Positions 2,144 through 64,000 of a stretch of 64,000 nt of DNA are shown piece by piece. This DNA is from Escherichia coli (GTDB lineage Bacteria; Pseudomonadota; Gammaproteobacteria; Enterobacterales; Enterobacteriaceae). A model generated the notes under the pieces. It did no database searches, was not told the DNA's origin, and saw only the letters and a program-made list of their open reading frames with translations. The stretch lies in assembly GCF_050920415.1 (NCBI RefSeq), contig NZ_CP169309.1; one strand, given 5' to 3'. The position numbers and the translations under genes are program-made. Every line of letters starts with the position of its first letter. The stretch's first letter is position 1.

Positions 2144-5100
2144 TTACTCGGTTACCGTTTGTTTAGGTTTACGCGAAAAACGCAGCCGCAGACGGTCAAA
2201 AAAGAGATACACCACTGGCGTGGTATACAGCGTCAGAAGCTGGCTCATTACCAGACCTCCGACAATGGTGATCCCCAGGGGTTGGCGCAGCTCCGAGCCG
2301 TCACCGCCCGACAATACCAACGGCAGCGCACCAAACAGCGCCGCCAGGGTAGTCATCATAATCGGGCGAAAACGCAGCAGACAGGCCTGGAAAATAGCTT
2401 CCTGCGGCGTCAGGTTACCGTGCCGTTGGGCTTCGAGCGCAAAATCGACCATCATAATAGCGTTTTTCTTCACGATGCCGATTAATAGCATGATCCCTAT
2501 CAGGGCGATTAGGCTGAACGGGGCATTGAACAGCTCCAGCGCCAACAGCGCTCCAACGCCCGCCGAGGGCAGGGTGGAGAGAATCGTCAATGGATGTACG
2601 TAACTCTCGTAAAGGATACCCAGCACGATATACACCGTGGCGATGGCTGCGATAATCAGGATCACCTGCGAGTTCATCGTCTCCTGGAATACCTGCGCTG
2701 TTCCGGCAAAACTGCCGCGCACCGTCGAAGGCACACCTAGCTGGGTCATTGCGCGGTCAATCGCCGCACTGGCGTCCGAGAGCGATTTTCCGGTCGGCAA
2801 GTTGAACGAGATGGTCGAGGCCGCCGATAATCCCTGATGATTCACCGACAGCGGGGCATTCGCCGGTTGCCATTTAGCGAAATACGACAGCGGGATCGCT
2901 TTTCCTTCGTTATTAATGACGAACATTTTTTCCAGTGCACTGATGTCCTGGGTATAGCGTGGATCCACTTCCATCACCACTTTATACTGGTTCATGGGCT
3001 GGTAAATGGTCGAGATTTGCCGCTGCCCGAAGGCGTTATTCAACAGGCTGTTGGCGGCCTGCACGTCGATTCCCAGTCGTGCCATAGTGTCGCGGTCGTA
3101 AACCAGATTCATCTCCGCGCCGTTATCCTGCTGGTCGGAATTCACGTCCGCCAGTTCCGGTAACGTTGCCAGTTTTTTGCGGATTTTCGGCTCCCATTCG
3201 CGCAGCGCCGCCAGGTCGTCGGACAGCAACGTGTACTGATAACTGGCGTTCGACTGACGTCCGCCAACGCGAATATCTTGCACCGCCATCAGGAACAGAT
3301 TCGCTCCCGGTTCTTTCGCCAGCTTCACCCGTAGACGGTCGATAATTTGCTGCGCCGTTTCGCTGCGCTCGTCGCGTGGTTTGAGAGTGATAAACATCAT
3401 CCCACTGTTCACCCGCGAGCCACCGGTAAAGCCGGTGACATTATCCACTGCCGGATCGTCACGGATAATTTTCATGAAATCCTGCAACTTACCGCGCATC
3501 GCCTGAAACGAAATGCTCTGATCCGCCTGTATCCCGCCCATCAACACGCCGGTGTCCTGCTCCGGGAAGAAGGTTTTCGGGATCGAGATATACAGCCAGA
3601 TATTCAGCGCAATGGTGCCAAGCAGCACTACACCCACCAGACGGGTATGATTGAGCACCCATTTCAGCGACTTGCCGTAGCCTTGTTGCAGAGCAACCAA
3701 CATGCGACCAAAACCACGCAGACGCTTTTGCTCGCGCGGCTTGCTGGCTTTTAGCATCCAGCCGCACATCATCGGCGTTAACGTCAGGGAAACCAGCAAC
3801 GAAATACCAATGGCGACAGAAAGCGTCACGGCAAATTCGCGTAACAGTCGGCCCGGCAATCCGCCCATCAACAGCAGCGGCAGGAACACCGCCACCAGCG
3901 ACAGACTCATCGACAGCACCGTAAAGCCGACTTCGCGAGTACCTTGCAGCGCGGCTTGCAACGGTTTCATCCCCGCTTCCAGATGACGGGCAATGTTTTC
4001 CAGCACCACGATGGCATCATCCACCACAAAGCCAGTGGCGATGGTCAGCGCCATTAACGAAAGATTATTGAGACTGAAACCACACAGATACATCGCGGCA
4101 AACGTACCAATCAGCGAAACCGGCACCGCAACGGCGGGAATAGTAGTGGCGCGACCCGAGCGCAGGAATAAAAACACCACCAGAATCACCAGCGCCACCG
4201 AGATAATCAGCGTTTGCTCGACTTCCTCCAGTGAGGCGCGAATGGTGGGGGAGCGATCCTGGGCAATTTGCAGATCAATCGCCGCCGGAATGGTCTCCTG
4301 CAACTCCGGTAATTTTGCCCGGATGCTGTCAACCGTCTGGATAATATTGGCTTCCGGCAGCTTGCGGATCATCAGCAAAATAGCCGGTTTAGCGTTGGTC
4401 ATCCCGGCGTTGCGCACATCCTGCACCGAATCGGTCACCGTCGCCACATCGCCCAGACGAACCGCGCCGCCGTTGTTGTAATGAATAATCAGCGGTTGGT
4501 ATTCGGTAGCGGTTTTTAGCTCATCATTGGTCTGTATCTGCCAGCGGTGAGTGCCATCTTCCAGCGCCCCCTGCGGTTTACGCACGTTGGCATTGCTGAT
4601 GGCAGTGCGCACATCGTCCAGCGAGACGCCCTGATTAAACAGCGCCTGCGGGTTCAGCCCAACGCGCACGGCGGGCAACGAGCTGCCGCCGACATCGACA
4701 TCACCGACGCCGTCGATTTGCGAAATTGTCGGAGCCAGTTGCGTCGAGGCGAAATCGTACAGTTCACCTTGCGAATAAGTATCGGATGTCAGCGTGAGGA
4801 TCATAATTGGCGCATCCGAAGGATTCGCTTTGCGATAGGTCGGACGGCTTGGCATCCCACTGGGCAGCAAACTTTGCGCGGCGTTGATCGCCGCCTGCAC
4901 ATCGCGCGCCGCGCCGTTGATATCCCGGTCAAAATCAAACTGCAAAATAATACGCGTGCTGCCAAGCGAACTGCTGGAGGTCATTTCACTGACCCCGGCG
5001 ATGCGCCCAAGTGAGCGCTCCAGCGGCGTGGCGACGGAAGACGCCATTGTCTCCGGTGATGCACCGGGCAGCGAGGCGCTGACCATAATCACCGGAAAAT

Positions 5101-9814: not shown

Positions 9815-9975
9815 ACGCTGAAACGGGAAAGCCCCTCCCGAGGAAGGGGCCTTAAATAAGGAAAGGGTCATGATGAAGTGGATCATCATCGTGGTGCTCT
9901 TAGTCGTTAGCTACCCAGCTTACTAAGACTACCAGGGCGGGGGAAACCCCGCTCTACCCTCACTCCTGAAAGTAT
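9815..9975 (-). ncRNA. Sib-family antisense sRNA (antitoxin), copy 1; boundaries approximate
   Basis: Inferred from the known Sib/Ibs geometry (sRNA fully overlaps the toxin ORF on the opposite strand); minus-strand hairpin GCCCCUUCC-UCG-GGAGGGGC followed by a U-containing tract near 9820-9845 could be its terminator. Confidence 0.4.
9870..9926 (+). CDS. Ibs-family type I toxin, copy 1 (18 aa: MMKWIIIVVLLVVSYPAY)
   Basis: ATG ATG AAG ... TAC TAA read directly; preceded by aaggaaagg Shine-Dalgarno; not in ORF track (below size cutoff). Resembles E. coli IbsA/IbsB peptides. Confidence 0.6.
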   Translation: MMKWIIIVVLLVVSYPAY

Positions 9976-10142
9976 GCCTTCACAATCAGATTGTCAATCC
10001 GCAGGCTTTGTAGTCTGCGATCCTGCCAGCAAATATTCTTTGCGAGACGTTACGCAATAATCACAGATGAAACTATTTTATCTACGCGTTAGCGATAGAC
10101 TGCATTCAGGGCAAAAGGAGGTAGGCCGCCGATTTCAGCGGG

Positions 10143-10303
10143 ACGCTGAAACGGGAAAGCCCCTCCCGAGGAAGGGGCCTTAAATAAGGAAAGGGTCATG
10201 ATGAAGATACTCATCATCGTGGTGCTCTTAGTCATTAGCTTACCGGCTTACTAAGACTACCAGGGCGGGGGAAACCCCGCTCTACCCTCACTCCTGAAAG
10301 TAT
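10143..10303 (-). ncRNA. Sib-family antisense sRNA, copy 2; boundaries approximate
   Basis: By position relative to Ibs copy 2, same repeat unit. Confidence 0.4.
10198..10254 (+). CDS. Ibs-family type I toxin, copy 2 (18 aa: MMKILIIVVLLVISLPAY)
   Basis: Same architecture as copy 1, 328 bp downstream. Confidence 0.6.
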   Translation: MMKILIIVVLLVISLPAY

Positions 10304-10470
10304 GCCTTCACAATCAGATTGTCAATCCGCAGGCTTTGTAGTCTGCGATCCTGCCAGCAAATATTCTTTGCGAGACGTTACGCAATAATCACATGTGAAA
10401 CTATTTTATCTGCAAGTTAGCGATAGACTGCTTGCATGGCGAAAGGAGGTAGGCCGCCGATTTCAGCGGG

Positions 10471-10631
10471 ACGCTGAAACGGGAAAGCCCCTCCCGAGGA
10501 AGGGGCCTTAAATAAGGAAAGGGTCATGATGAAGCTACTCATCATCGTGGTGCTCTTAGTTATTAGCTGGCCAGCTTACTAAGACTACCAGGGCGGGGGA
10601 AACCCCGCTCTACCCTCACTCCTGAAGTTAT
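10471..10631 (-). ncRNA. Sib-family antisense sRNA, copy 3; boundaries approximate
   Basis: By position relative to Ibs copy 3; the 5' flank of this unit is divergent so the sRNA may be altered. Confidence 0.3.
10526..10582 (+). CDS. Ibs-family type I toxin, copy 3 (18 aa: MMKLLIIVVLLVISWPAY)
   Basis: Same architecture; the distal part of this repeat unit diverges after the ORF. Confidence 0.55.
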   Translation: MMKLLIIVVLLVISWPAY

Positions 10632-53984: not shown

Positions 53985-54398
53985 ATGATGGATATTAAAT
54001 TAATCTCTTTGCAAAAACATGGGGATGAGCGTGGTGCATTAATTGCTCTTGAAGAGCAACGAAATATACCTTTCGAAGTCAAAAGAATATATTACATACT
54101 CGAGACTCTTAAGGGAGTAAGACGCGGATTTCATGCGCACAAGGTTACTCGTCAGTTAGCTATTGTAGTCAAGGGAGCTTGTAAATTTCATCTGGATAAT
54201 GGTAAAGAAACAAAGCAGGTGGAACTTAATGATCCAACAATTGCGTTGCTGATAGAACCCTATATATGGCATGAAATGTATGATTTTAGTGATGATTGTG
54301 TGCTGCTTGTAATTGCGGATGATTTCTATAAAGAGTCTGATTATATACGCAATTATGATGATTTTATTAGAAGAGTAAATTCAATTGAGAATTCATAA
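53985..54398 (+). CDS. fdtA: dTDP-4-keto-6-deoxyglucose 3,4-isomerase (FdtA/QdtA-type, WxcM-like cupin)
   Basis: 137 aa; [13 protein letters not shown]...[11 protein letters not shown]...RGFHAHK is typical of FdtA-type isomerases. FdtA versus QdtA cannot be separated by eye. Confidence 0.7.
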
Positions 54399-54852
54399 GC
54401 TAAGTGACGTCCAGACAACATCAATTGGTGATGGAACAACTATCTGGCAGTTTGTTGTAATACTAAAAGGTGCTGTAATTGGTAATAATTGCAACATCTG
54501 TGCAAATACCTTGATTGAAAATAACGTTGTAATTGGTAACAATGTCACAGTCAAAAGCGGTGTGTATATTTGGGATGGCGTTAAAATAGAGGATAATGTT
54601 TTTATTGGTCCTTGTGTAGCATTTACAAATGATAAGTATCCTCGCTCTAAAGTCTATCCTGATGAATTTTTGCACACAATAATACGCAAAGGAGCATCAA
54701 TAGGTGCTAATGCAACCATCCTGCCAGGAATTGAAATTGGTGAAAAAGCAATCGTTGGTGCGGGGAGTGTCGTAACCAAAAATGTACCGCCATGCGCAAT
54801 AGTAGTAGGTAATCCAGCTCGATTTATTAAATGGGTAGAGGATAATGAATAA
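54385..54852 (+). CDS. fdtC: dTDP-3-amino-3,6-dideoxyhexose N-acetyltransferase (hexapeptide repeat, FdtC-like)
   Basis: 155 aa; hexapeptide repeats (IGNNCNI..., IGNNVTV..., IGANATI...); lies between the isomerase and the aminotransferase. Confidence 0.65.
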
Positions 54853-60796: not shown

Positions 60797-61873
60797 ATGG
60801 AAGAAAATAATATGAAGACGGTCGCTGTAGTTGGCACAGTGGGTGTTCCTGCTTGTTATGGTGGGTTTGAATCACTTGTTCAGAATCTAATTGATTATCA
60901 ATCTGATGGTATACAATATCAGATATTTTGCTCTTCAAAAAAATATAATAAAAAATTAAAAAATTATAAAAATGCAGAATTAATCTATTTGCCGATAAAT
61001 GCCAATGGCGTCTCTAGCATAATTTATGACATTATGTGTTTAATTATTTGTTTATTCAAAAGGCCAGATGTTGTTTTAATATTGGGGGTATCTGGTTGTT
61101 TATTTCTACCAATTTATAAACTATTTTCAAAATCAAAGATCATTGTCAACATCGATGGGCTTGAATGGCGTAGAAATAAATGGGGAACGTTTGCTAAGAA
61201 ATTTCTCAAAATATCTGAGGCGATATCTATTAGAATAGCTGATATTATCATTTCAGATAATCAAGCAATAGCTGATTATGTGGAAAATAAGTACAATAAA
61301 AAAAGCGTAGTTATAGCTTATGGGGGAGATCATGCTACTAATCTTAGTACACCGATAGACGATGATCAAAAAAAAGATGGTTATTATTTGGGGCTTTGTA
61401 GGATAGAGCCTGAGAATAATATAGAAATGATTTTGAATGCCTTCATTAATACAGATAAAAAAATTAAATTTATGGGTAATTGGGATAATAGCGAGTATGG
61501 GCGCCAGCTAAAAAAATATTATTCAAACTATCCAAATATCACACTACTAGAACCTAACTATAATATCGAAGAACTTTATAAACTAAGAAAAAATTGCCTT
61601 GCATACATTCATGGACACTCGGCTGGTGGAACAAACCCTTCTTTAGTTGAAGCGATGCATTTTAATATTCCTATTTTTGCTTTCGATTGTGACTTTAATC
61701 GTTACACAACTAATAATTTAGCTCATTACTTTAATGATTCTGAACAACTGACCTCATTAGCAGACAGTTTGTCTTTTGGAAATCTTAAATGTCAAGTATT
61801 AGATTTAAAAAAATATGCTGAAGATATGTATAACTGGAGGCATATAGCTGCTATGTATGAATCTATTTATTAA
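60797..61873 (+). CDS. O-antigen glycosyltransferase (GT4-like with N-terminal DUF1972-like region)
   Basis: 358 aa; E-x7-E-like NPSLVEAMHFNIPIFA. Confidence 0.7.
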   Translation: MEENNMKTVAVVGTVGVPACYGGFESLVQNLIDYQSDGIQYQIFCSSKKYNKKLKNYKNAELIYLPINANGVSSIIYDIMCLIICLFKRPDVVLILGVSGCLFLPIYKLFSKSKIIVNIDGLEWRRNKWGTFAKKFLKISEAISIRIADIIISDNQAIADYVENKYNKKSVVIAYGGDHATNLSTPIDDDQKKDGYYLGLCRIEPENNIEMILNAFINTDKKIKFMGNWDNSEYGRQLKKYYSNYPNITLLEPNYNIEELYKLRKNCLAYIHGHSAGGTNPSLVEAMHFNIPIFAFDCDFNRYTTNNLAHYFNDSEQLTSLADSLSFGNLKCQVLDLKKYAEDMYNWRHIAAMYESIY

Positions 61874-62054
61874 ACGCATTAACAATAATATAATTGACCT
61901 TATATAGCTATCAGAGTAAAAATGTAACGCTGATTTTTTTGTTAAATGATGCGCATTATATATTTAATGATTAAAATACTCTTGATCAAATAAAACTATT
62001 TAATTAATAATGTAAAATTTCATTATGCTATTTAAGATGTGAAAAATAACTTAA

Positions 62055-62125
62055 ATAAATGATGGGATATATTTATATTATCCCGGTTATAGACAAGCCC
62101 AGGGAAAGATCATCAGAAGTACACT
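62055..62125 (+). mobile_element. Fossil fragment homologous to the 5' end of the ISAs1/H-repeat transposase gene
   Basis: tgatgggatatatttatattatcccggttatagacaagcccagggaaag is ~83% identical to 62258..62306 of the downstream transposase gene. Confidence 0.55.
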
Positions 62126-62244
62126 TTTTGTACTAAATAATTCGCATTTTATGTTTAAAAATATGAGATATTCCTCATTACCTGAAGCTGTTTTTTATTG
62201 CTTATACATGATCAAATACTCCTTACATAATTAAGGAGAACAAA

Positions 62245-63381
62245 ATGGAACTTAAAAAATTGATGGAACATATTTCTATTATCCCCGATTACAGACAAGC
62301 CTGGAAAGTGGAACATAAATTATCGGATATTCTACTGTTGACTATTTGTGCCGTCATTTCTGGTGCAGAAGGCTGGGAAGATATAGAGGATTTTGGAGAA
62401 ACACATCTCGATTTTTTGAAGCAATATGGTGATTTTGAAAATGGTATTCCTGTTCACGATACCATTGCCAGAGTTGTATCCTGTATCAGTCCTGCAAAAT
62501 TTCACGAGTGCTTTATTAACTGGATGCGAGATTGCCATACTTCAGATGATAAAGACGTCATCGCAATTGATGGAAAAACACTCCGGCATTCTTATGACAA
62601 GAGTCGCCGTAAGGGAGCGATTCATGTCATTAGTGCGTTCTCAACAATGCACAGTCTGGTCATCGGACAGATCAAGACGGATGAGAAATCCAATGAGATT
62701 ACAGCCATCCCTGAACTTCTTAACATGTTGGATATTAAAGGGAAAATTATCACAACTGATGCGATGGGTTGCCAGAAAGATATTGCAGAGAAGATACAAA
62801 AACAGGGAGGTGATTATTTATTCGCTGTAAAAGGAAATCAGCGTCGGCTTAATAAAGCCTTTGAAGAAAAATTCCCACTGAAAGAATTAAATAATCCAGA
62901 GCATGACAGTTATGCAATTAGTGAAAAGAGTCACGGCAGAGAAGATATCCGTCTTCATATTGTTTGCGATGACCCTGATGAACTTATTGATTTCACGTTT
63001 GAATGGAAAGGACTGAAAAAATTATGCGTGGCAGTCTCCTTTCGCTCAATAATAGCAGAGCAAAAGAAAGAGCCCGAAATGATGGTCAGATATTATATCA
63101 GTTCTGCTGATTTAACCGCTGAGAAGTTTGCGACAGCGATTTGAAATCACTGGCACGTGGAGAATAAGCTGCACTGGCGTCTGGACGTGGTAATGAATGA
63201 AGACGATTGTAAAATAAGAAGAGGAAATGCAGCAGAATTATTTTCTGGGATACGGCACATTGCTATTAATATTTTGACGAATGATAAGGTATTCAAGACA
63301 GGATTAAGACGTAAGATGCGAAAAGCAGCCATGGACAGAAACTATCTCGCGTCAGTCCTTGCGGGGAGCGGGCTTTACTAG
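62245..63381 (+). pseudogene. ISAs1-family (H-repeat-associated) transposase gene interrupted by a single in-frame TGA at 63142..63144
   Basis: ORF track shows 62245..63144 and 63157..63381 in the same frame. Read through the stop they give ~378 codons, typical of H-repeat/ISAs1 transposases (...[29 protein letters not shown]...). Confidence 0.8.
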
Positions 63382-63453
63382 TCCTTCCTCGCTCAGTGAC
63401 AGAATATTGAATGAATAGCATTAAAATTATTAAATAATATGGTTTAATTCGAC

Positions 63454-64000
63454 ATGAACTTTAAGAATATAATTAGAATAATACTACCTTTTTTTATTTT
63501 CTTGAGTATTTTACTTTACTCAGGAAGGGCGGATAGTGTTTTGTTATTTACTATCGAATACACACTTGCAAGTATGGCAATCTTTCTGATAAAAAGAAAG
63601 TTTATAAGCAATATCTTGTGGGGGATTTATCTCTCAATTTTAGGTGTACAGGCAGCATCGCTATTTAGTTCAGGACAATATTTGATGCCTCTTGCCTTGT
63701 CGAATGCTGCAGAAGTTGAATCGCTAGGCATTGGCGAGGTAATCAAGGTTTTTTCTATTTTTATTTTATTTGTTATAGTTTCATTCGTTACGATGCCTTC
63801 TGGTGCTCTAGTCGGCCGTATTAAATATTATAAATTTAATTTTTTCTGTATAGTATTATTGCTTGTGTGTTCTTTCATAAGCACGGGACCGGTATATGCT
63901 TTTTATGAAACAGCAAAATTGTACTATTTACAGCAAACCTTTAAGCCTAGTGAGAAGATCGGTGATGCCGGGAAATCTTTTTTAAAAACAAGTGTTTTTA
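63454..64000 (+). CDS. 3'-truncated ORF encoding a polytopic membrane protein of unknown function
   Basis: ATG at 63454, open to the window end (182 codons, no stop), so absent from the ORF track. MNFKNIIRIILPFFIFLSILLYSG... with >=4 hydrophobic helices; AT-rich. Confidence 0.55.
   Translation, partial: MNFKNIIRIILPFFIFLSILLYSGRADSVLLFTIEYTLASMAIFLIKRKFISNILWGIYLSILGVQAASLFSSGQYLMPLALSNAAEVESLGIGEVIKVFSIFILFVIVSFVTMPSGALVGRIKYYKFNFFCIVLLLVCSFISTGPVYAFYETAKLYYLQQTFKPSEKIGDAGKSFLKTSVF

Follow-up and report, generated by a model that had tools for sequence, protein, structure and literature searches.

The closest described relative of the element considered here is the H-repeat of the Escherichia coli K-12 Rhs elements (ISEc1/H-rpt, as in yhhI beside rhsB), in which a single open reading frame (ORF) of 378 codons occupies an element of ~1291 nt. 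Of 5426 complete E. coli genomes, 5339 carry ISEc1-related copies, the median number per genome being 5. A second point of comparison is a tandem arrangement in APEC O2:K1:H4 strains (e.g., NZ_CP126937), where a full-length but frameshifted second ISAs1 element, referred to here as B, lies between a DUF1972 glycosyltransferase gene and wekS, and a separate ISEc1 copy sits directly upstream of it, flanked by a 10-bp target duplication, CCTTATATAG. Finally, in Salmonella enterica group D2, an H-repeat remnant lies where recombination has joined the parts of the O-antigen cluster (Xiang et al. 1994; reviewed in PMC3715488). The idea that H-repeat remnants act as O-antigen recombination joints is long published (PMC3715488), as is the broader part that IS elements play in diversifying the O antigens of E. 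coli (PMC7685785); we found no paper in the open-access literature specifically on the H-repeat of the O2/O50 cluster.

We analyzed a 64,000-nt stretch of E. coli DNA (the window), the last 14 kb of which constitute an O2/O50 O-antigen gene cluster with the order galF, rfbBDA, fdt genes, wzx, a glycosyltransferase gene, rfbC, wzy, two glycosyltransferase genes, an ISAs1 element, and a wekS-like gene; the remainder holds mdtABCD, yeg genes, and the colanic-acid region, which is its usual content. The assignment follows from O2/O50-type wzx and wzy, together with rml and fdt genes, in the galF-to-gnd interval, and these 14 kb differ by 5 SNPs from a RefSeq locus annotated with an O2/O50 family flippase and polymerase. 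Positions 61880–63460 are 100% identical to 2 RefSeq chromosomes, those of strains MFDS1022581 and N96, both with O2/O50 clusters, and match many O2-type genomes, NGF1 and NC101 among them, at 97.2% identity. The features of interest, all on the + strand, are as follows:

60797..61873, +, DUF1972-family glycosyltransferase gene, the last of the O2/O50 set before the IS region (ORF; identical locus annotated in RefSeq)
61912..62099, +, truncated left part (stump) of the older ISAs1-family element B, with left-end motif CAGAGTAAAAA, leader, and 18 codons (collinear alignment)
62100..63391, +, ISEc1-like element (H-repeat, ISAs1 family) of 1292 nt, an ISEc1/B mosaic (alignment to copies whose ends are known)
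62100..62112, +, canonical left inverted repeat, CAGGGAAAGATCA (identical in K-12 yhhI, APEC copy A, and the O10 ISEc1)
62245..63381, +, transposase pseudogene of 378 codons with one internal stop (translation, Pfam, NF033564, PGAP)
63018..63141, +, B-type patch inside the element (B-type states at 63018, 63048, 63060, 63129, 63132, and 63141)
63142..63144, +, TGA nonsense codon, R300*, derived from CGA (alignment of other copies)
63379..63391, +, degenerate right inverted repeat TAGTCCTTCCTCG, the canonical form being TAATCTTGCCCTG (comparison with other copies)
63392..63395, +, four additional bases, CTCA, separating the right end from the flank that B elements also have, GTGA... (alignment)
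63454..64000, +, 5' part of a wekS-like gene of the LTA-synthase/sulfatase family, which runs past the window end (RefSeq annotation)

The DUF1972 glycosyltransferase gene is 99.5% identical to that of NGF1 and 97.3% identical to that of APEC O2:K1:H4, and the 5' part of the wekS-like gene, which gives weak phosphoglycerol transferase matches in NCBIfam, is 99.5% identical to NGF1 and 87.7% identical to APEC. An earlier note on this DNA had placed the element at the distal end of the O-antigen cluster, which is not the case, as the wekS-like gene separates it from gnd.

With the K-12 H-repeat, the element in the window shares its size and single-ORF architecture, an identical left repeat, and a body of 90–99% nucleotide identity. 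It differs from the K-12 H-repeat in carrying a stop at codon 300, a degenerate right repeat, and B-type patches, in lacking a target duplication, and in lying in an O-antigen cluster rather than in an Rhs element. With the APEC tandem, the window shares O2 genes that are 97–99% identical, the same DUF1972 glycosyltransferase–wekS site, and an older B with the same wekS junction. However, the APEC ISEc1 lies just outside the left end of a full-length B, whereas that of the window interrupts B at nt 188, with the remainder of B lost; furthermore, the APEC ISEc1 has its stop at codon 185, rather than codon 300, and the B–wekS tails of the two loci are ~12% diverged. The group D2 cluster of Salmonella, too, has an ISAs1/H-repeat remnant at the border of segments with different ancestry, but it belongs to a different species and cluster, the junction in the window splits O-unit genes from a wekS-like tail, and in place of a remnant alone the window holds a nested, near-complete element together with a stump.

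Several further features of this region were noted in passing. In both genomes carrying the stop allele of the transposase (L001 13575–15202 and L007 13575–15202), the downstream wekS-like gene is broken too, by a 1-nt deletion relative to NGF1 that leaves ORFs of 945 and 654 nt (window-equivalent position 64370, past the window end), and this lineage has thus lost both the transposase and wekS. Between a window-type genome and NGF1 (L001 and L002), gnd is 94.0% identical while wekS, directly upstream, is 99.2% identical, which implies a further recombination breakpoint between wekS and gnd. At 54385–54831, the PGAP annotation shows the fdtC-like acetyltransferase as a pseudogene in two partial pieces in 3 of 3 O2 genomes examined; in the window, the frame is open all along (~150 codons, apparently with a TTG start), and the pseudogene call looks like an annotation artefact. 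In the mdtA–yegL interval (~9870–10580), three type I toxin genes of the Ibs family are annotated in tandem in a RefSeq genome nearly identical to the window.

As the earlier note had proposed, the ORFs 62245–63144 and 63145–63381 are one frame split by a single TGA and give 378 continuous codons when read through, and this one long ORF (62245–63381) fills an element of ~1.2–1.3 kb, as in the ISAs1 family. The identification as an ISAs1-family (H-repeat/ISEc1) transposase is likewise borne out, with a score of 416.7 bits against NF033564 (cutoff 70) and Pfam matches of the read-through translation to DDE_Tnp_1_assoc (PF13808, residues 8–94) and DDE_Tnp_1 (PF01609, residues 102–343), and PGAP labels the gene in both 100%-identical genomes as an ISAs1 family transposase, pseudo, with an internal stop. 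An autonomous element would have an unbroken transposase ORF; here, the TGA at codon 300 truncates 79 residues, including the last ~44 residues of the DDE domain, just before an HWHVEN motif that, by analogy with IS4-like transposases, should carry the third catalytic acid. A PDB sequence search with the read-through transposase found no solved relative (the sole match, CheY, is a chance one, E = 1.1), and the assignment of the catalytic E thus stays putative. From the domain coverage and this motif, we infer that catalytic function has been lost. The stop probably arose late within the window lineage, because the changes of this lineage in the transposase ORF are still mostly synonymous.

A search for inverted and direct repeats around the element returned only AT-rich chance pairs and the stump repeats and was uninformative, and the ends were therefore defined by alignment to other copies, namely, the K-12 H-repeat (yhhI), APEC copy A with its 10-bp target duplication, and the O10:H32 copy. 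This supplies the repeats and target-site status that the earlier note had left to be defined: the ends fall at 62100 and 63391, the right repeat is degenerate, and a target duplication is absent. Set against the terminal pattern CAGGG...CCCTG, the left end is canonical, while the right end is homologous but degenerate, with CCTCG at its terminus (TCCTTCCTCG vs canonical TCTTGCCCTG; match to the left repeat at 8 of 13 positions), and the B remnant of strain PS1Thumoskin9 has a similar right end (TCTTTCCTCG). The flanks, TAGACAAGCC and CTCAGTGACA, contain no repeat, in contrast to the duplication around the related APEC copy. Overall, the element is 95–97% identical to ISEc1 copies, and no further ISAs1 copy was found within the window.

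Upstream of the element, the earlier note had reported a same-orientation remnant of the transposase gene at 62055–62125. The similarity is real: the local alignment of 61874–62099 with the element scores 84, compared to 23.0 ± 2.6 (maximum 35) for dinucleotide shuffles (z = 23), and a chance resemblance can be rejected on this basis; for the coding part, 62048–62099 vs 62249–62301, a score of 64 was reached by 0 of 1000 shuffles. The extent, however, needs correction. The stump (188 nt) starts at ~61912, is collinear with nt 1–202 of the element, comprising a CAGAG left-end-like motif, the 5' leader, and 18 codons, and ends at 62099, flush with the left end of the intact element (62100, CAGGG); the 26 nt at 62100–62125 are the intact element's own left terminus, as seen from the K-12 H-repeat and copies with known ends. 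Identity to the intact element is ~85% in the coding part and lower in the leader. RefSeq annotates no feature at the stump, and a search with 61874–62099 recovered it at at least 95% identity in 62 genomes, while 69 genomes have in its place a sequence of 88% identity that bears the annotation of an ISAs1 transposase and that in APEC O2:K1:H4 forms the 5' end of B. In all, there are roughly 131 O2/O50-type loci, and 147 loci carry wekS. The 6 bp at the stump/element junction, CAAGCC (62094–62099), are absent from NGF1-type O2 loci.

Traces of B are also present on the right-hand side. The flank 3' of the element (GTGA...AATAGCATTAAA...ATG of wekS) is the one found 3' of B in APEC, O10:H32, and PS1Thumoskin9, all of which have this right junction with wekS in common, and B 3' remnants precede the same wekS-like gene in other O-antigen clusters. 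At the six patch sites, the window and NGF1 agree with B-type copies against three ISEc1 copies, and B-type bases reappear at the right terminus (63377–63390), where they resemble the PS1Thumoskin9 remnant; the B-type support rests on about 10 diagnostic sites, and the B of the window lineage is ~12% diverged from the B copies used for comparison. On the left, B nt 188 meets ISEc1 nt 1 in a transposition junction.

Taking these comparisons into account, the feature is very probably a dead, stranded IS in the O2/O50 cluster, between the last glycosyltransferase gene and the wekS-like gene, that arose as follows. An old ISAs1-family element, B, lay directly upstream of wekS, and an ISEc1-type H-repeat then transposed into it after nt 188 (codon 18), leaving the 188-nt stump that abuts 62100. 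The newcomer and the rest of B were oriented alike and shared ~88% identity, and a homologous exchange between the two would have deleted the rest of B, the product being one mosaic element with B-type patches, B's degenerate right terminus, and B's wekS junction. Lastly, CGA changed to TGA at codon 300 in a rare sublineage (the window and two database genomes). The resident B, the insertion, and the nonsense change have been shown by comparison of homologous loci, and the recombination step is one that we infer. The lack of a target duplication would be due to this ISEc1/B recombination; the history as a whole does not account for the four bases CTCA beyond the right end. The earlier note's suggestion of repeated H-repeat insertion and deletion thus holds, with more than one event of IS insertion and deletion at this site. 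Judged from its sequence, the element is doubly disabled, and with a broken transposase gene and a poor right end it most likely does nothing active. It would persist as a portable block of homology and, lying ahead of wekS, may also be polar on that gene; a promoter/terminator consensus scan of 61700–63600 gave counts at chance level (10 vs 9.5 ± 3.1; 1 vs 0.8) and is therefore uninformative about polarity.

Three other readings of these data deserve consideration. The earlier note took the upstream remnant to be a fossil of the element's own 5' end, and such a fossil, or a partial tandem duplication, would have the observed orientation, collinearity, and ~85% identity across the first 18 codons. 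We nevertheless consider this very unlikely, as the stump matches the 5' end of the full-length B of APEC O2:K1:H4 (L004 6001–6206) at 87.9% over 206 nt, and the adjacent element or any ISEc1 copy at about 71–73% over the same stretch. It is also positionally orthologous to B, both being preceded by the upstream flank ...GACCTTATATAG. Because it is closest to B, shares its site and flank, and B exists as a full-length element in the APEC strains, the stump is the left end of the older, more diverged B. A different challenge concerns the TGA, which could be a sequencing or assembly error, or could be read through (by Trp-tRNA suppression, as selenocysteine, or by programmed recoding) such that a full-length, active transposase is made. 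The frame 3' of the stop is indeed wholly intact, and in E. coli a UGA with A as its next base is not the strongest terminator. However, base 63142, a T in the window, is C (CGA, Arg300) in the NGF1 orthologue and K-12 yhhI, and also in APEC A, the O10 ISEc1, APEC B, and the O10 B remnant, and the stop allele (counting alleles within 99%) is found in 2 of 5426 complete E. coli genomes, plus the window; with CGA in all other aligned copies and so rare an allele, the stop is not a conserved recoding site. Nor is there a recoding RNA signal, as a scan of 61500–64000 against Rfam, recoding elements included, gave no match at E ≤ 1. The same TGA is present in MFDS1022581 and N96, which differ from the window by 5 SNPs elsewhere in the locus and by 41 differences, respectively; it is therefore carried by three independent sequences and is not an assembly error, and the stop, which the earlier note had wanted checked against sequencing error, is real. 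Even if full-length protein were made, the right inverted repeat would still be degenerate. This reading is thus highly improbable and already largely refuted, and of the two options offered by the earlier note, a nonsense pseudogene inactivated by a single C-to-T change in CGA stands, while read-through is unsupported given the CGA elsewhere, the rarity of the allele, and the lack of an RNA family.

The remaining reading accepts B and the insertion, but has the rest of B lost by an IS-mediated adjacent deletion or another illegitimate deletion, the B-like patches being acquired by later gene conversion. The absent target duplication, the four unexplained bases CTCA at the right junction, and an element body that is ISEc1-like almost to its end would all be compatible with such a history. 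However, an adjacent deletion from the element's own right end would retain the canonical CTTGCCCTG, while the actual repeat is B-like and degenerate, and the flank beyond the right end is exactly the one that follows B elsewhere. We therefore regard this alternative as unlikely, and favor, as the simplest account, deletion of the rest of B by homologous recombination with the inserted ISEc1.

We note, however, one further aspect that the simple history proposed above does not explain. The element ORF (62245–63381) differs by 2.5% from its NGF1 orthologue (L002 12359–13495), with 20 synonymous and 7 nonsynonymous codon changes, whereas the flanking genes differ by 0.5–0.8% and the spacer by 0%. 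Among the substitutions in the element, 11 are specific to the window. The excess divergence, synonymous for the most part, probably stems from gene conversion in which other ISEc1 copies were the donors; a donor search for the 1-kb body among the 5426 genomes returned the orthologous O2 copy as nearest (97.3%), and no closer paralogue.

Comparison with the junctions of other strains, a line of inquiry that the earlier note had raised, proved informative about the role of the element in recombination. Between the window and APEC O2:K1:H4, the O2 genes are 97.3–98.8% identical, and the stump, spacer, and wekS of the B–wekS tail are 85–88% identical, such that divergence between these O2 lineages steps from ~1–3% to ~12% at the left end of B. 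Furthermore, the APEC wekS is 95.4% identical to the wekS of O10:H32, compared to 87.7% for the window-type O2 wekS. Thus, the same O2 gene set has been joined to two B–wekS tails, and the element would mark the joint where these different tails meet it. The earlier note had called such elements a likely driver of O-antigen locus exchange; the sharp jump in divergence at the element fits this proposal in general terms and agrees with the published view of H-repeat remnants, and the element may thus have driven such exchange.

A second nested case is seen in O10:H32 (L005, NZ_CP042892), where a ~34-nt ISAs1 left-end stump (CCAGGAAAGATCATCAAGCGTACACTT...) at 3310–3343 is flush with a complete ISEc1 copy, and a B-type 3' remnant (4641–5000) begins 6 nt past this copy and is followed by wekS. 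Three separate ISEc1 insertions are hence seen at the B that precedes wekS: the window lineage has one at B nt 188, APEC O2:K1 has one flush with the left end of B, and O10:H32 has one in a 34-nt ISAs1 left-end stump beside a B remnant. We offer, as a tentative idea that we ourselves rather doubt, that ISEc1-type H-repeats may favor insertion sites within or next to ISAs1 relatives already in place. If this were true, the B–wekS border would keep renewing itself as a recombination hotspot, where O-antigen gene sets acquire alternative tails.

The feature is ordinary biology, already known in kind, and its pseudogene is already annotated by RefSeq; alone, it matters little, as H-repeat/ISAs1 elements and their remnants are well documented in O-antigen clusters. 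The additions made here are modest, comprising the unannotated 188-nt stump of an older element, the ISEc1/B mosaic, the degenerate right end, and the pattern of nested IS elements. The pairing of the same O2 gene set with two 12%-diverged B–wekS tails, exactly at this element, illustrates cleanly how an IS can mark a joint of O-antigen recombination, and comparison of such loci could aid the reading of O2/O50 typing and of the evolution of this locus.
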